The position numbers and the translations under genes are program-made. Below, piece after piece: positions 18,029-35,133 of a stretch of DNA of 35,384 nt. Under the pieces are notes generated by a model, which saw only the letters and a list, made by a program, of their open reading frames with translations, ran no database searches and had not been told where the DNA came from. Location of the stretch: assembly GCA_036833435.1 (NCBI GenBank), contig DAITPV010000002.1, positions 1 to 35,384 on the forward strand. The letters are read 5' to 3'. Each line of letters starts with the position of its first letter. The first letter of the stretch is position 1. The stretch comes from Actinomycetota bacterium. GTDB taxonomy: Bacteria; Actinomycetota; UBA4738; CALAEC01.

Positions 18029-18103
18029 GGTGGCCGTAGCTCAAGTGGTTAGAGCGTCGGGTTGTGGTCCCGAAGGTTGGGGGTTCGAGTCCCCTCGGTC
18101 ACC
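18029..18103 (+). tRNA. tRNA-His (anticodon GTG) with encoded G-1
   Basis: Manual cloverleaf: G-1 plus acceptor GTGGCCG/CGGTCAC, D stem GCTC/GAGC, anticodon stem TCGGG/CCCGA with loop TTGTGGT, T arm GGGGG-TTCGAGT-CCCCT, discriminator C. Confidence 0.9.
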
Positions 18104-18109
18104 CGGCCC

Positions 18110-18183
18110 GGGCCGCTAGCTCAACTGGCTAGAGCAGGGGCCTCTTAAGCCCAAGGTTGCAGGTTCGAGTCCTGCGCGGCCCA
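18110..18183 (+). tRNA. tRNA-Lys (anticodon CTT); integration target of the downstream element
   Basis: Manual cloverleaf: acceptor GGGCCGC/GCGGCCC, D stem GCTC/GAGC, anticodon loop CTCTTAA, T arm GCAGG-TTCGAGT-CCTGC, discriminator A. Its 3' 45 nt are duplicated at 35267-35311. Confidence 0.9.
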
Positions 18184-18186
18184 CGA
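18139..18186 (+). repeat. attL core: 48-bp direct repeat (3' part of tRNA-Lys plus 3 nt)
   Basis: GGCCTCTTAAGCCCAAGGTTGCAGGTTCGAGTCCTGCGCGGCCCACGA is identical at 35267-35314. Flanking bases differ on both sides. Confidence 0.9.
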
Positions 18187-18302: not shown

Positions 18303-19211
18303 GTGGGGCTGGTAGCGGAAATCCGCGATGACGCCGTCAGGCCGGACGTCCCAACGTCCGTTCTTCTCCGCAAGTGCCTTGTGCTCGCCTCACGGCTGGG
18401 GCACCAGCCTTTGATGGAGTGGGTCCAATACGAGCTCAACGGTTACCCCGACGATGCCCCGTTGCCCTCCTATCGCGGCCCCCACGCCCTGACACCGATG
18501 GCCCACCTCGCCGGTCCTTTTCGCTCCGAGGTGAGGAACCTCCAGGTCCCCATCGGGGCGATTCCTGAGTACGCCAGAGAGTGGCTAAAACACGAGACGC
18601 GGGAGGCTCTGGCCGGCCTTGAACACACGGTCCGCCAGGCGGAGAGCAAGGGCCTCGGTTCTCTGAGGGTCCACCTCCCAGCGGACCTGGCGCCCCAAGT
18701 AGAGATCTACGAGGGGCACACGACCGTTCAGCTCTGGCTAGAAATACCCCTCAGCCTGGGAGTGGCGATCCTCGACCAGGTACGAAATCGAGTCCTGAAC
18801 TTTGCCCTGGAGATCGAAAAGGAGGATCCCCGGGCGGGCGAGGCCGAGATCGGGTCGCAGCCCATCCCAGAAGACCGGGTGGCGCAGATCTTCAACGTGG
18901 TGGTGATGGGCGGAGAGCATAGCTGGAGCCTTGGATCGTCTGGTCAAACGATTCAGCTGATCGAGGCGAACGTTCAACCTGGCGAACTCAAGAGCCTGGT
19001 CGAGTTCCTTCGAGGGCAGGGATTGCCCGAGTCCCAGATCAAGGAGCTTGAGCAAGCTCTCGAGGAAGACGGCTCGATCACAGGGGCTGAGCCGGGGCCC
19101 CAGACCAAGGGTTGGCTACGCCGGACGGCCGATAAGGCTGGGGAGGTGGGTTCGTCCGTTGCGGCCGGGGTCATCACCGCAGCCCTCAACCGTTACCTCG
19201 GGCTCAGCTGA
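18303..19211 (+). CDS. AbiTii-domain-like protein (putative abortive-infection/defence cargo)
   Basis: 302-aa ORF (GTG start). The N-terminal pattern ...VPTSVLLRKCLVLASRLGHQPLMEWVQYELNGYPDD..LPSYR matches my recollection of AbiTii-type N-terminal domains. The C-terminus has a short hydrophobic helix (VGSSVAAGVITAAL). It is the first gene inside attL. Confidence 0.5.
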   Translation: MGLVAEIRDDAVRPDVPTSVLLRKCLVLASRLGHQPLMEWVQYELNGYPDDAPLPSYRGPHALTPMAHLAGPFRSEVRNLQVPIGAIPEYAREWLKHETREALAGLEHTVRQAESKGLGSLRVHLPADLAPQVEIYEGHTTVQLWLEIPLSLGVAILDQVRNRVLNFALEIEKEDPRAGEAEIGSQPIPEDRVAQIFNVVVMGGEHSWSLGSSGQTIQLIEANVQPGELKSLVEFLRGQGLPESQIKELEQALEEDGSITGAEPGPQTKGWLRRTADKAGEVGSSVAAGVITAALNRYLGLS

Positions 19212-19396
19212 TTCCCGAGGAAGCTGGCCTGGACGAAGGCCTCGATGTCCTCACGCCGGAACCGGACCAGCTGGCCCAGGCGGATGTGGGGAATCCGCTG
19301 CTCCTGGGCCCACAGATAGACCGTGTTCCGCTTGATCCCAAGGTAGGTGGCGACCTCCTCGGCAGTCATCAAAGGGACTAGGGGCCGCTCATCCAC
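19193..19396 (-). CDS. excisionase-family (MerR/Xis-like) helix-turn-helix DNA-binding protein
   Basis: MTAEEVATYLGIKRNTVYLWAQEQRIPHIRLGQLVRFRREDIEAFV is a typical Xis/AlpA-type winged HTH. Start is GTG 19396 or ATG 19369. The 3' end overlaps the convergent AbiTii-like gene by 19 nt. Confidence 0.75.
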   Translation of the reverse strand: MDERPLVPLMTAEEVATYLGIKRNTVYLWAQEQRIPHIRLGQLVRFRREDIEAFVQASFLGNQLSPR

Positions 19397-20130: not shown

Positions 20131-20930
20131 CTAGATCCTCCCCTCCCCGCCGATGATGAGGTCGGCCACCGCATTGGCAGCCTGCTCCTCCAGAGACGGG
20201 ATCGAATGGCTGTACGTGTCGATCGTGAGGGTGATCGTCGAGTGGCCGAGCCTGTCAGAGACGACCTTCGGGTGAACACCGGCTGCGAGAGCGAGAGTTG
20301 CGTACGTGTGACGGAGGTCGTGTAGCCGGATCCGTGGAAGGCCGGCGTCACTCGCGCGGCGTTGGAACGCCTTTGAGAACTCGTCAGGGTGGACTGGCGA
20401 CCCGTCCTCCTTCGCGAAGACCAGGCCCTGGTCCCGGTAGGCCGGCCCCCAAGCCAGTCGCTCCTTTGCCTGCTGCTTCAGGTGGTCGCGGAGAGCCGCG
20501 ATGGTCGCGGGGTCGAGCGAGATCCGTCGTCGGCTTCGCTCCGTCTTGGGCTCGGTGACCACCACGCGATACCCGACCGCAGTGATGGCCTGGCGGACGG
20601 CGAGGGTGCCGGCGGTTAGATCGACATCCTCACGTCGAAGGCCCAAAACCTCCCCACGACGCATGCCGGTCGTGGCCGCGAGGAACCAGGCAGCGAAGAG
20701 CCTGTCTTCCCGCACGTGCTGAAGGTAGGCACGAAGCTGCTCCGCGTCCCAGGTCTGCATGGGAACTCGGGGCTGCCTTGGAAGGCTCTGATTTTGGGCG
20801 GGGTTCCGCACCAACCGCCCCTCCCGTGTGGCTTCCAGGAAAGCCCGATGGAGGGTGGCCCCGATGTACCTGACCGTTCGTGGTGAAAGTCCGGAGCGAT
20901 CCCCATTTCTCCGCCCCCTCTCCAGCAGTC
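20131..20930 (-). pseudogene. int: tyrosine integrase, C-terminal fragment (rest of the core-binding domain plus catalytic domain), separated from its N-terminus by an IS
   Basis: The frame is open from the IS boundary: ...LLERGRRNGDRSGLSPRTVRYIGATLHRAFLEATREGRLVRNPA..., then catalytic motifs RRGEVLGLRREDV, HDLRHTYATL and LGHSTITLTIDTYSH. There is no ATG or GTG at its 5' end. Confidence 0.9.
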
Positions 20931-20947
20931 GGTAGTGGGTCAGTTTG
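20931..20947 (+). repeat. IS left terminal inverted repeat
   Basis: GGTAGTGGGTCAGTTTG begins GGnnnTG, like the ends of E. coli IS1 (GGTGATG...). Confidence 0.9.
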
Positions 20948-21022
20948 CCCGCTGAGCTGCCCTCACGCCAGAGCGGTCAAGCAGGGACCGCCTATCTCCT
21001 CTTACCCAAGGGCCTCTGGCGG

Positions 21023-21280
21023 CTAGTCAACGGTGCCGCCCAGGTCCTCGACTATGGCCTTGAACTGAGCGACCAGCGTGTGGAAACGCTCGGGCCTGAT
21101 CCACACGTGAGCTACGCCCTCATGCTGGGGCCCTCCGGGAGCAGGATGTATCGCTTCACGGGCAAACAGGATGGCGATGCCGTCCTTCTGCGCCCGGATG
21201 AAACAGCCTTGGGCGAATGAAGGCTCGGCCATCTCATCGTCGATCTCCACGGGGACGTTCCCGTAGGTCAGGATTGCCAA
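21023..21280 (-). CDS. hypothetical protein (IS passenger, downstream of the transposase)
   Basis: 85-aa ORF. TTG start 24 nt after the transposase stop, preceded by GGGAGGGG, which sits in a CCCCTC/GAGGGG hairpin. Confidence 0.4.
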   Translation of the reverse strand: MAILTYGNVPVEIDDEMAEPSFAQGCFIRAQKDGIAILFAREAIHPAPGGPQHEGVAHVWIRPERFHTLVAQFKAIVEDLGGTVD

Positions 21281-21303
21281 GGTACCCCTCCCTTCAGAGG
21301 GGT

Positions 21304-22143
21304 CTAGTCAAGCAGCCCGGCGATCTCTTCGAGGGTCCAGACGTGATCGGTGACCCCTGCCGCCATCGCCGGGGTGGTCGGGTAGCGCTGGCTGAGGGTC
21401 TTATGGGGTCTGGCGAAGTTGTAGTGCATGAAGTGGAGGGACACGGCATGGGCCAGGTTCTCGACCTTCCGGCTGAACGCATTGGTCAGCCGAGTGAAAC
21501 GGCGCATCCCCATCCGGATCGTGAGGTTCTGCCGTTCCACATAGGACGTGGAGATGTGAGCGGGATCGGGGTCACCGTAGACTCTGATGGTCTCGACTCC
21601 GGTGCATTCCGTCGGGCTGTATCGACGAGCCGCGTCCTTCACGTTCGGCGGGGTCCCGTAGTGCTTTTCGAGCATGGCGTAGTCGATGCGAGGGCCGAAG
21701 GTCTCGGTGACTGCTCGGACGTAGATGCGGTTGCCGTCGGTAGTGAGCTGGATCCGATTCTTCACTCGGGAGGCCAGGTCCTTCATGAATACGTAGGCGT
21801 CGATGGCCTGGCGCTCCCCGACCAGCCAGGTAGGGACCAGCTTGGTGTCGGCATCGAGGGCCACCCACGTCCACACGTCCCCGTACTCAAAGGGATGCTC
21901 GGGCTTGACGTTCTTGGCCTTGGCCCCCACGAAGGCCCATATCTCGTCGCACTCGATCCGCTTGGAGTCCAGGTCCCGGAGGGTGGCGTCCTGGTACTTG
22001 GAGCAGGCATCCCCGAGGTCTCTGAGCAGCTTGACCACGGTGTTCTTGGCGGCACCCGTCACCCTGACAGTGGCCCGGATGCTCATGCCCTCGACCAAGC
22101 ACCCGATGATCTGTGCCCTCTTCTCGGTGCTCAGCATGTTCAT
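21304..22143 (-). CDS. IS1-family DDE transposase (single fused ORF)
   Basis: Motifs parallel E. coli IS1 InsAB: CDEIWAFVGAKAKN (vs DEQWGYVGAKSRQ), LTTDGNRIY (vs MTDGWPLY), YVERQNLTIRMGMRRFTRLTNAFSRKVENL (vs [28 protein letters not shown]). N-terminal HTH. Start set to ATG 22141-22143, just downstream of a TTGACT-17-CATAAT promoter; ATG 22152 and TTG 22179 are alternatives. Confidence 0.85.
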   Translation of the reverse strand: MNMLSTEKRAQIIGCLVEGMSIRATVRVTGAAKNTVVKLLRDLGDACSKYQDATLRDLDSKRIECDEIWAFVGAKAKNVKPEHPFEYGDVWTWVALDADTKLVPTWLVGERQAIDAYVFMKDLASRVKNRIQLTTDGNRIYVRAVTETFGPRIDYAMLEKHYGTPPNVKDAARRYSPTECTGVETIRVYGDPDPAHISTSYVERQNLTIRMGMRRFTRLTNAFSRKVENLAHAVSLHFMHYNFARPHKTLSQRYPTTPAMAAGVTDHVWTLEEIAGLLD

Positions 22144-22150
22144 ACTGATC

Positions 22151-22179
22151 ATTATGCCTGACCGGTCAAGCATAGTCAA
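22151..22179 (-). promoter_or_regulatory. candidate transposase promoter (TTGACT, 17-nt spacer, CATAAT)
   Basis: On the minus strand the -35 is at 22179-22174 and the -10 at 22156-22151. The ATG at 22143 lies 7 nt after the -10, implying a leaderless or near-leaderless mRNA. Confidence 0.5.
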
Positions 22180-22210
22180 GGGGGTATCCTCATCGGCCGA
22201 TGGGGAAGCT

Positions 22211-22528
22211 GTGTCGGCCCTAGCCAGCGACCTGTTCGAACCGCCGCTCGATCCCGGTATCGCGGAGGCAGTGATCCTCCTGCGCGAAGCGGGGATCGAG
22301 ACCTTCGAATCCTGCGAGGGAGGGCCAGGGCATTCCTACCCCGAGCCAACTGTCGCCTTCAATGGGGAACCCTCGGCCGGCTTTCAGGCCTATGCGGTGG
22401 CCGTCCAGCACGGTCTCAAAGTGAACACTCTTCGTCGAGTGTGGCGGGTGGACTACGGGGAGCTGACCGGGCCGTGGTGGGAGCTCACGCTGGTCCCACC
22501 ACGCCCAAGCCAGGCCCTACCCTCCTAG
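22211..22528 (+). CDS. hypothetical protein (IS passenger)
   Basis: The long track ORF (antisense to the transposase) was trimmed to GTG 22211, preceded by GGGGAAG. 105 aa with no recognisable domain. Confidence 0.4.
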   Translation: MSALASDLFEPPLDPGIAEAVILLREAGIETFESCEGGPGHSYPEPTVAFNGEPSAGFQAYAVAVQHGLKVNTLRRVWRVDYGELTGPWWELTLVPPRPSQALPS

Positions 22529-22692
22529 GACTGCAGGTCCCTGCAGTCCTTGCAGTGCCTCAGCCCTCCGGTGCCTTCGACACGGTTGTACGACTCGATG
22601 TTGTTGCCAGTCGTGCATTTCGTGTCGTCGTGATAGACACCATCCGGCTTGCCCTCCTCCAGTCTGGAGTGCCATGGGTTCGTTTTGGCCAC
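22525..22692 (-). CDS. small Cys/His-containing protein (55 aa; not in the ORF track)
   Basis: Hand translation gives VAKTNPWHSRLEEGKPDGVYHDDTKCTTGNNIESYNRVEGTGGLRHCKDCRDLQS*. GTG start preceded by GGGGGAGGTGA. It has its own TTGACT-16-TATGCT promoter plus an operator palindrome. Confidence 0.55.
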   Translation of the reverse strand: MAKTNPWHSRLEEGKPDGVYHDDTKCTTGNNIESYNRVEGTGGLRHCKDCRDLQS

Positions 22693-22724
22693 CTGGGATC
22701 ACCTCCCCCGTCCCGGCTGGGAAC

Positions 22725-22738
22725 TTACATCCATGTAA
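22725..22738. promoter_or_regulatory. operator-like palindrome TTACATCCATGTAA
   Basis: Perfect 6-2-6 palindrome 6 nt downstream of the -10 (TATGCT, 22750-22745) of the 55-aa gene. A near-identical copy is at 23004-23017. Confidence 0.55.
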
Positions 22739-22812
22739 TTTCGAAGCATATCAGCCGGGATCAGGGAGTCAAGCACCAGGGCGGGGGGAACGGGAAGGGC
22801 AGATCGGGGGAG

Positions 22813-22980
22813 CTAGGCGGGGGTGACTCTCCGCTCGGATTCGATGTACCGGCGCAGGGCGCTGCGGATGATCCGGGCTATGGGCCGGTCCTCGGCCTCG
22901 GCCTGTTCGTGGAGGGCTTCGCGCAGATCACCGGGCAGCCGCACCACGTACTGGTACTGGGTGACGCGGTCCTTCGCCAT
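22813..22980 (-). CDS. ribbon-helix-helix (CopG/Arc-type) DNA-binding protein
   Basis: Trimmed to the ATG at 22978-22980 (GGGAAGGGAG SD). MAKDRVTQYQYVVRLPGDLREALHEQAEAEDRPIARIIRSALRRYIE shows a beta-strand then helix-helix pattern. Confidence 0.7.
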   Translation of the reverse strand: MAKDRVTQYQYVVRLPGDLREALHEQAEAEDRPIARIIRSALRRYIESERRVTPA

Positions 22981-23003
22981 CCCGACTCCCTTCCCGTGGG
23001 GAA

Positions 23004-23017
23004 TTACGTCCATGTGA
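23004..23017. promoter_or_regulatory. operator-like near-palindrome TTACGTCCATGTGA in the RHH gene promoter
   Basis: Overlaps the last base of the -10 of a TTGACC (23045-23040), 17-nt spacer, CAGAAT (23022-23017) promoter on the minus strand. It matches 12 of 14 positions of the 22725-22738 palindrome. Confidence 0.55.
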
Positions 23018-23056
23018 TTCTGCCGAATACCAAACGATTGGTCAAGCGTGTCCAGG

Positions 23057-23326
23057 CTACCGGCTTCGCTTCCGACCCTCAGGGGAGCGCTTGCCGCGCC
23101 ACCGGGCGATGGCGGCCTTCCTGGCGATCTCCTGGCGCTTCTTGGCGCTCAGCGCCTTGGCCCTGGCCTTGCCCCCCTTGAGGCCACCCTTCCGCCCCAG
23201 CTCGACCGCTGCGGGGTCCTTCGGGGGTGCCTCGGGCTTCGGGGGTGCATCGCCGGTAGCCTCATCGATGAGCTGCTTGGCGAGTTCGTTTACGTCCCTC
23301 GGCCGCTTGCGTGAGCGCTCAGGCAT
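23057..23326 (-). CDS. small basic Lys/Arg/Ala-rich protein (IS passenger)
   Basis: 89-aa ORF. GRKGGLKGGKARAKALSAKKRQEIARKAAIARW is a motif I recall from small MGE-associated proteins of unknown function. Confidence 0.5.
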   Translation of the reverse strand: MPERSRKRPRDVNELAKQLIDEATGDAPPKPEAPPKDPAAVELGRKGGLKGGKARAKALSAKKRQEIARKAAIARWRGKRSPEGRKRSR

Positions 23327-23375
23327 GGCCCAAGGGTCCCACCCGAGCCCCTGAGCGTCAAGGCTGGCTATCCCT

Positions 23376-23392
23376 CAAACTGACCCACTACC
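23376..23392 (+). repeat. IS right terminal inverted repeat
   Basis: CAAACTGACCCACTACC is the exact reverse complement of 20931-20947. It supplies the GSGSV-stop tail to the truncated integrase N-fragment. Confidence 0.9.
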
Positions 23393-23752
23393 CAGCAGTC
23401 CCGCGTAGAAGGCATTCAGCTGAGCGGTGGTCAGCTGCTGGAGCCTGATGCTCCCCAGGCCCGGGATCACGTGGTGCTCGAGGTTCCTCCGATAGGAGTC
23501 CCACGTTGAAAGCCGGACGCGGGCCTTGGCACCCTCGAGCCACTGAAGGAGATACTCCCCGACGGTGAGCCGGGACGGCTCCACATACGTTCCTTGCGCC
23601 AGGCGGCCCTCCTGCTCTGTGAGCCAGTCGCGAGCTTCACGCTTGGTCGCAAAGCCGCCCTTCCAAATCCGCTTCCTGTTCCGGGCCTCATCCCGCCCCA
23701 ACTCGATGATGGCAACCCACCTGCTCCCCCGCCTCCATACACGGCCTCTCAC
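23393..23752 (-). pseudogene. int: tyrosine integrase, N-terminal fragment (arm-binding and start of core-binding domain)
   Basis: GTG start overlaps the repressor stop (GTGA). RGRVWRRGSRWVAIIELGRDEARNRKRIWKGGFATKREA...TVGEYLLQWLE...STWDSYRRNLEHHVIP is a typical phage-integrase N-terminus. The reading frame runs into the IS end and stops at 23375. Confidence 0.9.
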
Positions 23753-28644: not shown

Positions 28645-28875
28645 ATGCCGGGGCCGTTTGACACGGCCAGGACAGTTTTCAGTGTGGCGAGCCAGGGTTC
28701 TCGATACCTCAGTCCTCTCGAGGTGGCGCAACACCTGGGGGTCCAGGTCGAGACCGTCCGGGACTGGATCCGCCGGGGCGAGCTCCGCGCGGTTCGACTC
28801 GGCCGGCTCCTGCGAGTCCGACGGGAGGACCTGGAGGCATGGCTTTCGCAGCGTGTCGTTGGGAGCGCCACGTGA
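28645..28875 (+). CDS. excisionase-family HTH DNA-binding protein (third copy in the element)
   Basis: LSPLEVAQHLGVQVETVRDWIRRGELRAVRLGRLLRVRREDLEAWL is close to the 19193-19396 product (RLGQLVRFRREDIEAFV). AGGGGAG SD. Confidence 0.7.
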   Translation: MPGPFDTARTVFSVASQGSRYLSPLEVAQHLGVQVETVRDWIRRGELRAVRLGRLLRVRREDLEAWLSQRVVGSAT

Positions 28876-28975
28876 ACAGCTGTCGCTGTCTCATCCGAAC
28901 GGACCGCGCCCAGCTCTCGCCCGAGTGGGTCGGGGCTCCCGGGTCAGGTCTCAGGCGAATGGGTGGTGCCAGCGC

Positions 28976-29965
28976 ATGAGCACCCTGGACGAAGCGATCG
29001 AGACGCTGAAACGTGCGGGGACGGCTGGGCCCCGGGCCTCAGGCCCGGTCTCCCCGCTCCGCAAGGAGTTCTCGGCCGTCGATGTTCGGGTGGTCGACTC
29101 GAAGCAGCGACGCCTGGGGATCGTCATCTCAACCGAGGCCGAGGATCGGGACGGCGACATCATCGAAGTGGCGGGCTGGGATCTGACGAACTACCGGAGG
29201 AACCCGGTCGTTCTCTTCGCTCACGACTACCGATCCCCCGCCGTCGGCAAGGCCATCTCGGTGGTGAAGGACACCGTCGGGCAGGCGCTGCGCTCCGTCG
29301 TGGAGTTCGCTCCCACGGAGATGGGCCGGCAACTGTTCGAGCTCTACGCCGGAAAGTACATGCGGGCCTGGTCCGTGGGTTTCCTCCCGAAGGAGTCCGT
29401 CCGCCGCCGCGAAACGGAAGACGGCTACACGGGTCGTGGCGTGCGCTTCAGGCGCCAGGAGCTCCTGGAGTACTCGGCCGTGCCGGTGCCGGCCAATGCC
29501 GAAGCCCTGACCGATGCAGTGACCCGAATGGCGCGCGGAGCGTCCGCGCTCCAACCCACCGGCTCAGCCGAGGATCCCGACGACGCTGTTGCTCGACTCG
29601 TCTACGCCGCTGAGCGGCGGGTCATTCACCGGTGGCCCCTGGGTCGGAGTGTTCCCCGGCTGGAGGCCAGCGACCTGGTCGCAAGGGCTTGCCGAATCGT
29701 TGGGCTGGCGCCGATCAGGATCGTTCAGGGACACCGCGACGGGCGAGCCAAACGGGTTCGAGGTCGCCCGCTCATCTTCCTGAGCGAACGGGGGCTCCGG
29801 CCGCTGTACATCCTCCATGAGGTTGCTCATCACGCCGCCGGCCTCGAGCACGGTCACGATGCTGACTTCCGCCGCCGCTATAAGCACCTCGTGTCTCGGT
29901 TGCTGGGCCACCCGGAGGCCCGGGCGCTGGCCCAAGCATTCCGGGAGAAAGGGTTAGACGACTGA
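28976..29965 (+). CDS. HK97-family prohead (capsid maturation) protease fused to a C-terminal HExxH zincin-like region
   Basis: Track ORF trimmed to ATG 28976. ISTEAEDRDGDIIEVAGWDLTNYRRNPVVLFAHDYRSPAVGK...AWSVGF...EYSAVPVPAN is a classic S78/HK97 protease core. The C-terminal ~130 aa contain LYILHEVAHHAAGLEHGHDADF. Confidence 0.8.
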   Translation: MSTLDEAIETLKRAGTAGPRASGPVSPLRKEFSAVDVRVVDSKQRRLGIVISTEAEDRDGDIIEVAGWDLTNYRRNPVVLFAHDYRSPAVGKAISVVKDTVGQALRSVVEFAPTEMGRQLFELYAGKYMRAWSVGFLPKESVRRRETEDGYTGRGVRFRRQELLEYSAVPVPANAEALTDAVTRMARGASALQPTGSAEDPDDAVARLVYAAERRVIHRWPLGRSVPRLEASDLVARACRIVGLAPIRIVQGHRDGRAKRVRGRPLIFLSERGLRPLYILHEVAHHAAGLEHGHDADFRRRYKHLVSRLLGHPEARALAQAFREKGLDD

Positions 29966-30615
29966 TGAGTGGAGACGATCGATTCACTGATGCCGCCGGA
30001 CGCCTGAAGCAACTCCGCTCCGAGATCGCCGCTCTGAGCGACGGCGTGAAAGCCACGCAGCGGGCCGTCTCTGACGCCATCGCGAATGGCGAGGAGGCGA
30101 GGCGGATCCTCGGAGCAGCAAGAGCCAGGGTGGCGGAGGCGGAGCAGGAGCTCGCCCAGGCCACCGCCGCGAGGTATCAGGCTGAGGCCGCCTCGGGACC
30201 TCGAACCGATCCCGCAGCGGCAAAGCAAGAGACCACCGCCCGGGAAGCGCTTCATCGGGCTCGCCAGGAGCTGAGGACCGCGGAGCTTGGCTCCGAGGAG
30301 GCCGATCGTGTTCGCGAGCTGCTGCGCGAGCATCTGAACGAGGTCGAGCAGGAGGCCCGGTCCCAGAAATCCGGAGCCAAGTCGAAGGCGGCGTCCGAGA
30401 TCCTGGCGCACGTCAAGGCCTCCTGGGCTGACGTCCGCCTTCTGCTCGCCGAGCTGTCCGCCATCGGGGCAATCCCCGAGGGGGACAACCCCGTGGCGAC
30501 GAACGTGGCCGACGATGCCGCCGCCGCCTTCGAGCAGCGGATGGGCTGGGCTGGCTCCGTCAGCGAAGGCCGGGCGCTCGAGCGGGAGCGAGCCTCGATC
30601 CTTGGTGGGCGCTGA
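29965..30615 (+). CDS. Ala/Glu/Arg-rich coiled-coil protein (possible scaffold-like protein)
   Basis: ATG overlaps the protease stop (TGATG). 216 aa, mostly predicted helical. The scaffold assignment rests only on its position after the protease. Confidence 0.5.
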   Translation: MSGDDRFTDAAGRLKQLRSEIAALSDGVKATQRAVSDAIANGEEARRILGAARARVAEAEQELAQATAARYQAEAASGPRTDPAAAKQETTAREALHRARQELRTAELGSEEADRVRELLREHLNEVEQEARSQKSGAKSKAASEILAHVKASWADVRLLLAELSAIGAIPEGDNPVATNVADDAAAAFEQRMGWAGSVSEGRALERERASILGGR

Positions 30616-30628
30616 GGGTGGGGGGGTC

Positions 30629-31978
30629 GTGACGGCCGGCATGATCACAACCCCGGCACCGGCTGGCCTGGGGTATGCGTCCGATCCCCCCACCCTGATC
30701 GCCGACCTCCTCCATCTCCCGGATGGCCAGCACTTCGGCGAGGCGATGGCCCCGTTCCAGCGAGAAGACTTCGCCGCCCACTTCGGCGCGGCCGCTCCGC
30801 CAAACACGTGGATCTCCCGACCGAGAGGTGGATCCAAGACCACGGACACAGCAGCGATCGCCATCACGGATCTGCTCCTGGCTCCCGACCGGAGCCGCCT
30901 ATACGCCGTCGCGGCCGACCAAGAGCAGGCAGGGCTGATCCGAGAGGCAATCATGTCCTGGGTCGCGTCGTCCCCCGCCCTTGAGGACGTCTTCGACATT
31001 CAGGCGAACCTCATCGCCAACCCGACGACGGGGACGGTGCTGCGCATCATGGCTTCTGACGCCCCCTCGGCGCTTGGCCTTCTTCCCTACAGGCTGTACC
31101 TCGACGAGCTCACTGCGTGGCCAAGCCGGGCCATGTGGGACGCGGTGATCTCCGCCGCGCACAAGGTTCCTGGTGCGCGGGTGCTCGTCATCTCGACCGC
31201 CGGATCCCCGGCGCACTGGTCCTACTCACTGTGGCAGCACGTGGTCGAGTCCCCCACCTGGCAGGTGAGAGAGTCCCAGGAGCTCGCTCCCTGGGTATCC
31301 GGGGAGCAGGTCGAGGACCAGCGAGCCCACCTGCCGTCAGGAATCATCGCGCGCTGGCTGGAAAACCGGTGGGCGTCGGCAGATGAAGCCCTGCTCTCAC
31401 TCGAGGACATCGTTGCTTGCACGGACCACGACCGGGAGCCGTCGGTCGCCGGCGACGGAGCGGGCCCGTACAGGATCGGCGTCGACTTCGGCTGGAAGCA
31501 CGACCTGACCGGCGTTGCGGTCGTACGTGGTGGCCGGCGGAGCCGGGTCCACCGACTCGAGTACCTGTGGACCCGCCAGGGCTCGCGGGAGGCCCCGGTG
31601 CAGGTGGCTGAAGTGGAGGATAAGATCCAAAGCCTTCAGCGCCGATTCCGACCAGCTCGCGTCATCGTGGATCCGACCCAGCTCGTTGGAACGGCCCAGC
31701 GACTACCGAGGGTCGAGGAGTTCCCGTTCACCGCCCAGAGCGTCGGGAAGCTCTCCACGGTGCTGCTGTCACTCATCCGGGAGCGGCGGCTGCGTCTTCT
31801 CCCCGACGAGGAGCTTCGCACAGAGCTCCTCTCCCTGGTCGTCAGGGAGAGCACATACGGCTGGAGGATGGAGGCTGCCCCCGGGGCTCACGACGACCGC
31901 GCGATGGCCCTGGCGCTCGCGGCCTTCGCTGCGGAGGAGGCTCCGAAGAGTCCCCAGATAGGGATCTGGAAGCTGTGA
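30629..31978 (+). CDS. terminase large subunit
   Basis: Walker A-like RPRGGSKT, Walker B LYLDELTAW, coupling motif ISTAG, nuclease motifs GVDFGWKHDLTGVAVV and GAHDDRAMALALA. GTG 30629 follows GAGGGTGGGGGG; ATG 30641 is an alternative start. Confidence 0.85.
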   Translation: MTAGMITTPAPAGLGYASDPPTLIADLLHLPDGQHFGEAMAPFQREDFAAHFGAAAPPNTWISRPRGGSKTTDTAAIAITDLLLAPDRSRLYAVAADQEQAGLIREAIMSWVASSPALEDVFDIQANLIANPTTGTVLRIMASDAPSALGLLPYRLYLDELTAWPSRAMWDAVISAAHKVPGARVLVISTAGSPAHWSYSLWQHVVESPTWQVRESQELAPWVSGEQVEDQRAHLPSGIIARWLENRWASADEALLSLEDIVACTDHDREPSVAGDGAGPYRIGVDFGWKHDLTGVAVVRGGRRSRVHRLEYLWTRQGSREAPVQVAEVEDKIQSLQRRFRPARVIVDPTQLVGTAQRLPRVEEFPFTAQSVGKLSTVLLSLIRERRLRLLPDEELRTELLSLVVRESTYGWRMEAAPGAHDDRAMALALAAFAAEEAPKSPQIGIWKL

Positions 31979-32784: not shown

Positions 32785-35133
32785 GTGCCGCTGAGCGGAG
32801 GGATCGCGGCGGCGGTGGGGGGAGCCGCCGGCGGCGACATCCTGATCCGTCTGCTCCTGGACGGGAAGCAGTACCAAGCCGGCCTGGCGGCAGCTCGCGC
32901 CCAGGCCCAGGGGTTCTCCAGCCGGATGATCTCGGCCGGCCGGACCATGCAGTCGGTCGGTTCCACCATGACCCGCCGGTTCACCCTTCCGCTCGTCCTG
33001 GCCGGCGGGGCGGCCGTGAAGCTCGCCGTCGACTTCAACGAGTCGATGACCCACATCAAGGCCCTGGTCGGGGCGAGCGACGCCCAGATCTCCAGGTACC
33101 ACGACACGATCCTCGACATGGCGGGGGCCGTGGGGAAGTCCCCGCAGGAGCTTGCCGAGGCCCTGTACTTCGTCACCTCGGCGGGGTTCTCAGGGGCCAA
33201 GGCTCTCGACGTACTGGACGCGTCCGCCAGAGCTTCGGCGGCCGGCCTCGGCGAGACCATGACGGTGGCCGATGCGGTCACCTCCGCCGTGAACGCCTAT
33301 GGCGAGAAGGTGCTGTCGGCGGAGCAGGCCACCGACATCCTTCTAGCCACCGTCCGGGAGGGCAAGGCCGAGCCTGAGGAGCTGGCCGGCTCCATCGGCC
33401 GCGTGATCCCGGTCGCCTCCGACCTGGGGGTGTCCTTCGACGAGGTCGGAGCTGCCCTCGCCGGCATGACGCTGTCGGGGTTCAACGCCGCGGAGGCAGC
33501 CACCAACCTGGGCGGGATCTTCTCCTCGCTCCTGAAGCCGACCACCAAGGGTGACGAAGTGCTGAAGTCTCTCGGCCTGACCCTCGACGACGTCCGGGCG
33601 ATGGTCGAGGACGAGGGCCTGTTCCCCGCGTTGATGATGCTGCGCGAGGAGCTGGGCAACGACAAGGAGGCCATGGCCTCCTTGTTCCCGAATGTGCGGG
33701 CGCTGCGAGGTTTCCTGAACCTGACCGGGGCATCGGCGGAGAAGAACGCCGGCGTGTTCCGCGATCTCAGCGGAGCGGTCGGCGACACCGACAAGGCGTT
33801 CCAGGACATCCAGGAGGATCCGGCTCACAAGTTCCGGGAGGCCTGGTCCGACGTGCAGGCCACCATGATCGAGGCGGGCGAGAAGATCCTGCCCGTCGTC
33901 ACGAAGATCATCGAGGAGGTCGGTGGCATCGTGGGCGCCTTCGGGAATCTAGACGAGGGCACCCAGGAGTTCATCATCTGGGCTGGAGCCATCACCGCGG
34001 CAGCGGGGCCCGCCGTAAATCTGCTCGGGAACCTCCTTAGGATTGGCGGCCGCCTCGGCCGGATGAAGTTCCCGATCCCTGGTGGCACAGGCGGAGCCGG
34101 TGGGGGTGTCGGCGCCATTCCCTTCCTTGCAACCGGCCCGGGGGGACTCGCGATAGCCACCACGCTGACTGCGGTCACGGCAGGCATCTACAACATCGGC
34201 CAGGCCGCTCAAGACAAGACGCAGTTCATCAACGCGATGTCTCAAGCTCTCCTCGCGGGACACATGAACACAAGACAGCTCCGCGAGGAGCTCATGAGGA
34301 TGCGAATGACGGAGGGCCCGATCCGTGGGCTGTACGACCAGGTCGCCCTGATGGACAACATCGTGGCTCAAGCGAACGTCTCCATCCTCGATCAGTCCCG
34401 CAACCTGCGCCGGCTGGGGATCGAGCTCACCGATGCTGAGCTGGCCGCCTACCAGAACTACGTCGTCCAGGGCGACCTGTACGGCCAGATGGTCGTTCTG
34501 AACGGCGCACTTCAGCGAGGACTCGGCCCCCTCAACAACCTCGTTGGTTCGCATCGCTCCGCCGCCGCGGCAGCAGCCGACCACGCCCAGAAGGTTCAGG
34601 GCCTCGGTGCGGCCATGCGGAACGTCCCCGACGCGAGCCCGAAGATCAACTTCCCCAGCATCGACGACGACCTCGCCAAGCTTGGGCGCCTCCGTGGGGA
34701 GCTCAACACCCTCGACGGCCAGAAGGCCACGATCACCGTCCACACCAACTACACCCGCTCCGGCACTCCGCCCGGAGGTATCCCCGGTGGCACACCCGGC
34801 GGGGCGGGAGGCCACCAGGCCCAACACGGGTGGCACGGCTGGGTGCACGGCCCGACGTGGTTCCTCACTGGTGAGGGTGGCCAGTCGGAGCGGGTGGACA
34901 TCTCGCCGAAGAACAGCGTGCACGGCCCGGTCGCGGGCGGGAAAGGAGCCGCGGCCGCGGCGCTGTCCCCTCTCAGGTTCTCTGGAACCCTGACCGGCAA
35001 GCTGAGCACGCCCCTCGGCCTGGCCGACTTTGAGGGGATGGCGGAGCTGGCTGCCGAGGCCGTGGGCGCGGACGTCCTTAGCGCAGCGTCCAGCATGGTG
35101 GAGCAACAAGTCTGGGCTGGGATGCGGCGATGA
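32785..35133 (+). CDS. phage tail tape measure protein (TP901-family core region)
   Basis: 782-aa ORF. The N-terminal third (MTHIKALVGASDAQ...ILDMAGAVGKSPQELAEALYFVTSAGF...ATDILLATVREGKAEPEELAGSIGRV) matches the TMP core. Central Gly-rich hydrophobic segment and helical remainder. Confidence 0.8.
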   Translation: MPLSGGIAAAVGGAAGGDILIRLLLDGKQYQAGLAAARAQAQGFSSRMISAGRTMQSVGSTMTRRFTLPLVLAGGAAVKLAVDFNESMTHIKALVGASDAQISRYHDTILDMAGAVGKSPQELAEALYFVTSAGFSGAKALDVLDASARASAAGLGETMTVADAVTSAVNAYGEKVLSAEQATDILLATVREGKAEPEELAGSIGRVIPVASDLGVSFDEVGAALAGMTLSGFNAAEAATNLGGIFSSLLKPTTKGDEVLKSLGLTLDDVRAMVEDEGLFPALMMLREELGNDKEAMASLFPNVRALRGFLNLTGASAEKNAGVFRDLSGAVGDTDKAFQDIQEDPAHKFREAWSDVQATMIEAGEKILPVVTKIIEEVGGIVGAFGNLDEGTQEFIIWAGAITAAAGPAVNLLGNLLRIGGRLGRMKFPIPGGTGGAGGGVGAIPFLATGPGGLAIATTLTAVTAGIYNIGQAAQDKTQFINAMSQALLAGHMNTRQLREELMRMRMTEGPIRGLYDQVALMDNIVAQANVSILDQSRNLRRLGIELTDAELAAYQNYVVQGDLYGQMVVLNGALQRGLGPLNNLVGSHRSAAAAAADHAQKVQGLGAAMRNVPDASPKINFPSIDDDLAKLGRLRGELNTLDGQKATITVHTNYTRSGTPPGGIPGGTPGGAGGHQAQHGWHGWVHGPTWFLTGEGGQSERVDISPKNSVHGPVAGGKGAAAAALSPLRFSGTLTGKLSTPLGLADFEGMAELAAEAVGADVLSAASSMVEQQVWAGMRR

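Follow-up and report, generated by a model that had tools for sequence, protein, structure and literature searches.

Positions 20931-23392 of the DNA analysed here, a 35,384-bp window from contig DAITPV010000002.1 of a metagenomic Actinomycetota assembly (GCA_036833435.1), very probably represent a complete and recently inserted IS1-family transposon of 2,462 bp, which is of the transporter insertion sequence (IS) type and splits the integrase gene of a prophage. The element is thus a further representative of a known category, the IS1-family transporter IS, and the architecture of the subgroup to which it belongs appears to be undescribed. It is bounded by 17-bp inverted repeats (IRs), the right one (IRR, GGTAGTGGGTCAGTTTG, 20931-20947, plus strand) forming the end downstream of the transposase gene and the left one (IRL, 23376-23392, minus strand) the end upstream of it. 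As a first-pass annotation of this DNA had proposed, the two repeats are exact reverse complements, and even with up to 3 mismatches allowed the repeat matches only 2 sites in the window, as compared to 0.07 expected from shuffled sequences. Directly outside the repeats are the two copies of the target-site duplication CAGCAGTC, at 20923-20930 beside IRR and at 23393-23400 beside IRL, neither of which is assigned to a strand. This duplication had initially been counted as 8 bp, or as 9 bp with the inclusion of one ambiguous C. The former count was retained since 54 of the 68 complete relatives of the element carry a perfect 8-bp duplication beside ends starting with GG, and several others agree at 7/8 positions. 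The 9-bp alternative is ruled out by this family consensus, the additional C being the last base of the repeat. Target duplications of the IS1 family are 8-9 bp long according to ISfinder, a range which includes the 8 bp found here.

The interrupted integrase gene lies on the minus strand, its 5′ part (23393-23752) encoding residues 1-118 with the arm-binding and SAM-like domains, and its 3′ part (20131-20930, inclusive of the left duplication copy) encoding residues 119-383 with the rest of the core-binding region and the catalytic domain, in which the R...HxxR...Y motifs of tyrosine integrases are visible. As it stands the 5′ open reading frame (ORF) occupies 23375-23752, continuing for 7 codons inside the element before a stop. 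Deletion of 20931-23400 joins ...QLNAFYAGLL to ERGRRNGDRSGLSPRTVRYI... in frame and restores an uninterrupted minus-strand ORF of 383 aa that contains the domains Arm-DNA-bind_4 (PF14657), Phage_int_SAM_3 (PF14659) and Phage_integrase (PF00589), all above their Pfam cut-offs, so that the disruption is as precise as had been claimed. In alignments with phage integrases from Bacillus, Mycobacterium and Rhodococcus phages (E down to 1e-76), residues 15-378 of the repaired protein are matched without interruption. The gene is broken behind codon 118, at a point between the SAM-like and catalytic domains, and the insertion separates the arm- and core-binding part of the integrase from its catalytic domain. 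Since the repeat and the duplication are both perfect and the reading frame is restored exactly, chance and chimeric assembly are both excluded, and the insertion is real. The insertion event itself is ordinary, and probably recent.

Cargo of the element and its relatives

The transposase gene accounts for 849 bp of the 2462-bp element, and five further ORFs are situated between the IRs, the order from IRL inward being KGG, a ribbon-helix-helix (RHH) gene, a 55-aa ORF, a 105-aa ORF on the opposite strand, the transposase gene and an 85-aa ORF. Transporter ISs, or ISs with passenger genes, are known for several IS families (PMC7986276; PMC3129680, which cites Siguier et al. 2009 on IS1595 and IS1). 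The present element resembles other transporter ISs in that it has one transposase, terminal IRs, one target duplication and unrelated genes inside the IRs, with five non-transposase ORFs enclosed and the duplication flanking the whole 2462 bp; the same arrangement was found in its relatives and in a sibling element, L086. It differs from them in that cargo is the rule in the present subgroup (1.9-5.5 kb), in the presence of KGG as a second conserved gene, and in having two defined cargo slots, the content of which varies among elements that are colinear elsewhere.

When one genome was scanned for each species, 441 relatives were obtained, of which 80 loci were examined, these being labelled mostly as Solirubrobacterales or other Actinomycetota metagenome-assembled genomes, with some Chloroflexota, Dormibacterota, Planctomycetota and Verrucomicrobiota. 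Across 80+ related loci (L001-L083) the terminal repeat is near-invariant (GGYRGTGGGTCAGTTTG), although the transposases of the 80 examined loci are only 63-70% identical to the query, and the ends of the relatives read GG(T/C)(A/G)GTG. The 68 complete relatives are 1862-5484 bp long, with a median of 3688 bp. The three closest transposases (80-83% identical) belong to elements of 2923, 2625 and 2674 bp that have the exact 17-bp repeats of the window element at their ends, and the genes located between KGG and the transposase gene differ among these three elements, encoding PIN_10 and HTH_66 proteins, a P63C protein and an SDH-type protease.

The KGG gene (23057-23326, minus strand) is the first gene inside IRL and specifies a basic protein of 89 aa with the invariant motif GRxGGLKGGxxRA...ARW. 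Its family comprises more than 7800 homologues, all of which are labelled 'hypothetical'; no match to Pfam or NCBIfam and no sequence match in the PDB was obtained, and its structure model is of low confidence, with a predicted local distance difference test score (pLDDT) of 68 and a predicted template modelling score (pTM) of 0.30. With a hidden Markov model of KGG, copies of full length that share the strand of the transposase gene and lie upstream of it were detected in 65 of 69 elements, the window element being included in this total. In these elements KGG is either the first gene (start at ~55-78) or follows 1-3 small helix-turn-helix (HTH) genes (starts at ~640-690 or 890-975). The protein may bind DNA and thereby assist transposition as a cofactor, or regulate it. 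The two variable cargo slots extend from KGG to the transposase gene and from the transposase gene to the far repeat.

The KGG-to-transposase slot of the window element holds three genes. The first (22813-22980, minus strand) encodes a CopG/Arc-like RHH protein of 55 aa from the ATG at 22980, with matches to RHH_5, Arc and RHH_1 just under their cut-offs and a 54-aa counterpart in the sibling L086; an alternative start at 23013, giving 66 aa, was rejected on account of its overlap with a palindrome and a promoter-like site and the 54-aa length of the sibling gene. The second (22525-22692, minus strand) encodes a 55-aa protein with residues H21, C26, C47 and C50, which likewise has a counterpart in L086 and has no Pfam or NCBIfam match. 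The third (22211-22528, plus strand) encodes a 105-aa protein for which AlphaFold returned a confident α/β model (pLDDT 86), and which has 616 homologues, labelled 'hypothetical' and often adjoining transposases of the same kind. Owing to these homologues, the confident model and the proximity of the homologues to the same type of transposase, the 105-aa ORF is a real gene. No Pfam, NCBIfam or PDB sequence match was found for its product, and the best PDB fold match had an E-value of 0.03 and a template modelling score below 0.5. A 63-aa ORF on the other strand (22220-22411, minus), favoured by a gene caller based on G+C content at third codon positions (GC3), was discarded as homology supports the 105-aa ORF. 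The slot between the transposase gene and IRR is occupied by the 85-aa gene (21023-21280, minus strand), the product of which matches DUF3467 at 17.8 bits, below the cut-off. The RHH and 85-aa proteins, the two that were scanned against the PADLOC models, gave no match.

Three promoter-like sites were found in the element as compared to 0.5 expected, all on the minus strand and situated ahead of the transposase, RHH and 55-aa genes. The first (TTGACT-17-CATAAT, 22151-22179) abuts the transposase start and would yield a leaderless or near-leaderless mRNA. The second (22772-22745), upstream of the 55-aa ORF, is accompanied by a 14-bp palindrome (TTACATCCATGTAA, 22725-22738), and the third (23045-23017), upstream of the RHH gene, by a second copy of this palindrome (TTACGTCCATGTGA, 23004-23017), each copy lying just downstream of its promoter-like site. 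The paired palindromes are probably operators for the RHH protein, which would then repress the two cargo promoters. A 19-nt sequence adjacent to the transposase start and facing away from it (ATGCCTGACCGGTCAAGCA, 22154-22172, plus strand) closely resembles the conserved start of the KGG gene (ATGCCTGAGCGCTCACGCA, 23308-23326, minus strand), a likeness that could be the relic of an inversion or rearrangement which brought in the 105-aa gene, or could reflect a common binding site.

The sibling element L086/L087, found through the 105-aa protein, is 2469 bp long and has the same gene order as the element of the window, with which it is colinear over 2059 bp at 73% nucleotide identity. As it is located at an unrelated chromosomal site with an 8-bp duplication of its own (ACGGGGTC), this cargo set travels with the element and is old.

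The cargo of the relatives, listed from cluster representatives and large singletons, includes proteins that matched the PADLOC models for RmrA of RosmerTA (E 1e-48), for SoFic (E 5e-49) and for MTase_II, the last of these being a type II methyltransferase with a fused nuclease of the Mrr type. Also present are GmrSD, dCTP deaminase, an AbiEii-type AAA_21 ATPase, NYN, ParA-like proteins, SDH-type or trypsin-like proteases and STAND-like ATPases. One cargo pair resembles PIN/DUF433, albeit by reading of the sequence alone. Any enrichment of this cargo in defence genes is a lead rather than a measured quantity, since the list consists of representatives and is not a census. We consider it possible, though doubtful, that the element is primarily a vehicle for defence or addiction genes, that its RHH/55-aa/105-aa block, perhaps together with the 85-aa gene, is an uncharacterised toxin-antitoxin or anti-phage module, and that landing in the integrase gene was selected as a means of prophage immobilisation. 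The RmrA-like, SoFic-like, methyltransferase-Mrr, GmrSD, deaminase, AbiEii-type and NYN proteins and the PIN/DUF433-like pair of the relatives are consistent with this proposal, as are the promoter-like sites that the window cargo has of its own, the paired palindromes next to the RHH gene and the occurrence of the exact repeat in viral contigs described below. Against it stand the lack of PADLOC matches for the RHH and 85-aa proteins, of informative Pfam matches for the four passenger proteins of the window, of a structural match for the 105-aa protein, and of any recognisable toxin-like domain; moreover, a single insertion is uninformative with regard to selection, and the cargo survey is based on representatives as opposed to a full count. 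Tn7-like transposons reportedly have a variable cargo rich in anti-phage defence genes, as described by Benler and colleagues in 2021. The present elements differ from these in employing one small DDE protein instead of TnsABCD/E and in being far smaller, and they are not known to target attachment sites.

At the opposite extreme, the element would be an ordinary cargo-free IS1-type IS in which the extra ORFs are spurious. Such an explanation would agree with the IS1-like nature of the transposase, with ends that read GGnnnTG and with the 8-bp length of the duplication, but it is very unlikely given that the element is 2462 bp long for a transposase gene of 849 bp, that KGG recurs in nearly all elements and has thousands of homologues, that the 105-aa ORF has its 616 homologues and a confident fold, that the whole cargo block is colinear in L086 at 73% nucleotide identity, and that promoter-like sites precede cargo genes.

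Site use, derivatives and viral copies

Unrelated cargo was found in both slots at a pair of orthologous chromosomal loci, L063:2935-7513 and L073:3659-8492. The flanks of these loci are 90-93% identical, and the position of the element and its duplication (TCTCCAAG) are shared, yet the element backbones are only 81-82% identical. This pattern is consistent with family members having replaced one another through recombination, or with a single site having been used repeatedly. Elements were also observed end to end. At L023:7770-8625 a duplication and a 4.5-kb element are followed by the same 8 bp, an 802-bp transposase-less derivative and the 8 bp once more at 7/8 positions, and at L069:3395-3445 and L086:900-960 the element abuts a neighbour with a sister repeat type (GGTAGTGTCTCAGTTTG). 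These arrangements suggest re-use of a target, or insertion beside an existing end.

The exact 17-bp repeat is also present in more than 120 IMG/VR viral contigs (loci L092-L211). Among these are transposase-less units of 153-1142 bp with an IR at each end and perfect 8-bp duplications (for example L167:852-1004, L093:373-662 and L097:4334-4949), and 20 of 37 viral IR pairs have an 8-bp duplication. The short units look like non-autonomous derivatives similar to miniature inverted-repeat transposable elements. A comparison of 55 target sites revealed a weak symmetric signal, TAG-N6-duplication-N6-CTA, in which TAG occupies positions 7-9 nt before the duplication and CTA the corresponding positions after it at about half of the sites. 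The signal is absent at the site in the window and may reflect related loci rather than target choice.

Beyond these observations, it is conceivable, though we would not rely on it, that the elements constitute a very large undescribed IS1-derived subgroup, mostly of soil Actinomycetota, with a near-invariant 17-bp end, an obligatory KGG partner, two cargo slots that are exchanged even at the same site, and a cargo rich in defence or toxin-antitoxin genes. Such a subgroup would represent a small-scale shuttle of defence genes that also spreads via phage genomes, and the RHH/55-aa/105-aa block of the window would be an uncharacterised module of this kind. In the literature searched, no description was found of the subgroup architecture (the KGG partner, the two slots and the defence-type cargo) or of the size of the subgroup.

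The transposase and its family assignment

The transposase (P0001; 21304-22152, minus strand) is a single-ORF DDE protein of 282 aa with an N-terminal HTH followed by the catalytic residues D69, D139 and E206, which are invariant in an alignment of 35 relatives. Its match to the Pfam model DDE_Tnp_IS1 (PF03400; 33.3 bits, cut-off 24.1) is the sole one above a cut-off, and the same model was matched by all 35 relatives tested. The search for homologues saturated at more than 8000, the majority of which are named 'IS1 family transposase'. For direct comparison we used the IS1A element of E. coli K-12. When a profile of the 35 relatives was aligned to InsB with hhalign, a match of 95% probability (E 3.8e-8) was obtained over 120 columns, with D69, D139 and E206 aligned and with insertions of ~13 aa and ~47 aa relative to InsB, the latter between the second D and the E. 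BLASTP against InsB paired three motifs, those around the first D (ECDEIW / EMDEQW), around the second D (TTDGNRIY / MTDGWPLY) and around the E (YVERQNLTIR), and the HTH of the transposase aligns with residues 55-88 of InsA (35% identity, pairwise E 1e-5). Both ends of the element read GGTAGTG, in agreement with the pattern GGnnnTG and comparable to GGTGATG at the start of E. coli IS1A. The three catalytic-region motifs and the IS1-like ends, which the first-pass annotation had noted, as well as the family assignment it had derived from them, were thereby borne out, and by Pfam and profile criteria the transposase is a member of the IS1 family. By analogy with IS1, it would bind the repeats through its HTH and make 8-bp staggered target cuts by DDE chemistry, in either a copy-in/cointegrate or a cut-and-paste pathway.

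Canonical IS1 elements are ~0.74-1.2 kb long and contain overlapping insA and insB′ genes that are fused by a programmed -1 frameshift. The present element has in common with E. coli IS1 (IS1A, insA/insB′, 768 bp) the InsB-type D-D-E core, an InsA-type HTH, GGnnnTG ends and a short duplication of fixed length. It deviates from it in its single 282-aa ORF, the absence of a zinc finger, a C-terminal extension and the 8-bp length of the duplication, and it is three times longer with five additional genes. The ISMhu11 subgroup of the IS1 family in ISfinder includes lengths of up to ~4.6 kb, implying passenger genes, and the present element may or may not fall within it.

A number of observations weigh against the element being a complete IS1-family transporter IS. 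The Pfam match covers mainly the E-region of the transposase, and the NCBIfam model transpos_IS1 (NF033558) was matched at 65.3 bits (E 7e-18) over residues 15-159 only, short of the equivalog cut-off of 100. Reading of the 282-aa transposase revealed no Cys-rich zinc-finger motif ahead of the HTH, and the gene is one uninterrupted ORF in the window element and in all 35 aligned relatives, without the insA/insB′ frameshift. Only one copy of the element is present within the contig, and the source is a metagenomic assembly. An exact-sequence look-up found no other contig with the transposase sequence of the window. Finally, KGG and the four passenger ORFs received no functional assignment from the Pfam, PADLOC or PDB comparisons. 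Owing to the low NCBIfam score and the absence of both zinc finger and frameshift, the element is to be placed in a divergent, distant IS1 subgroup and is not a canonical IS1.

Two further explanations were weighed against this placement and against the insertion. IS1595-family elements generate 8-bp duplications and often have passenger genes, and the transposase might derive from another DDE family (IS1595, IS6 or IS481), for which sub-threshold matches to DDE_Tnp_IS240 (19 bits), rve_3 and the IS6/IS481 NCBIfam models could be invoked. This origin is highly improbable, however, as only PF03400 was matched above its cut-off, in 35 of 35 relatives, as DDE_Tnp_IS1595 (PF12762) gave no match at E <= 0.01 with the window transposase or any of the 35 relatives, and as the InsB profile alignment over the D-D-E core, the InsA-type HTH and the GGnnnTG ends all point to IS1. 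An assembly artefact, in which a repeat would have been inserted into the integrase gene as a chimera, is barely credible even though the contig is metagenomic and repeats are frequent sites of misassembly, since a perfect 8-bp duplication on both sides and an in-frame 383-aa integrase are not expected from a chimera and the same signature is found in 54 independent relatives.

The host prophage and the significance of the family

The IS1-family element resides in a prophage that lies beside tRNA-Lys and is cut off by the contig end, the window comprising the entire contig. The G+C content falls from ~0.71 to ~0.64 just past the genes for tRNA-His and tRNA-Lys (18030-18184), which likely mark the left attachment site of the prophage, its right end being beyond the end of the contig. 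From the tRNA genes towards the contig end the region contains an AbiTii gene, an HTH_17 excisionase-like gene, an int-alpA RNA motif and the split integrase gene, and further prophage genes encode CI- and Cro-like regulators, a primase, a prohead protease, a large terminase (TerL) and a tape-measure protein. The AbiTii-domain gene (18303-19211, plus strand; PF18864, E 4e-39) directly follows tRNA-Lys at the edge of the prophage, and its product resembles an abortive-infection-type moron. The HTH_17 (AlpA/excisionase-like) gene is located at 19193-19396. The int-alpA motif (RF02996; 19733-19797, minus strand), which scored 40.6 bits against a gathering score of 35.8, is flanked by two small ORFs; the integrase gene lies upstream of the motif and the HTH_17 gene downstream of it. 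The structural genes are arranged in an unusual order, with the prohead protease/head-like region at 28658-29965, the large terminase at 30515-31978 and the tape-measure gene at 32785-35133, soon after which the contig ends.

As its integrase is split, the prophage would no longer be able to excise by means of its own integrase. That it is locked in is therefore probable and a reasonable conclusion, with a second recombinase beyond the contig end or supply in trans as remaining possibilities. At this locus next to tRNA-Lys a prophage thus lost its integrase to a transposon and is probably stuck. Annotation pipelines would present what is one clean mobile element as a series of 'hypothetical' genes accompanied by two fragments of an integrase.

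It is the architecture and size of the subgroup, and not the insertion, that are of interest. The wider value resides in a family which has thousands of members, whose ends are conserved across transposases that are 63-83% identical, and which nearly always retains the transposase together with a second, unnamed gene, KGG. If this holds true, the short fixed repeat GGYRGTGGGTCAGTTTG would provide a cheap handle for mobile cargo in soil metagenomes and phage genomes, the cargo found through it may include new defence or toxin-antitoxin modules, and the KGG protein would be a candidate for a new transposition cofactor of the IS1 family.

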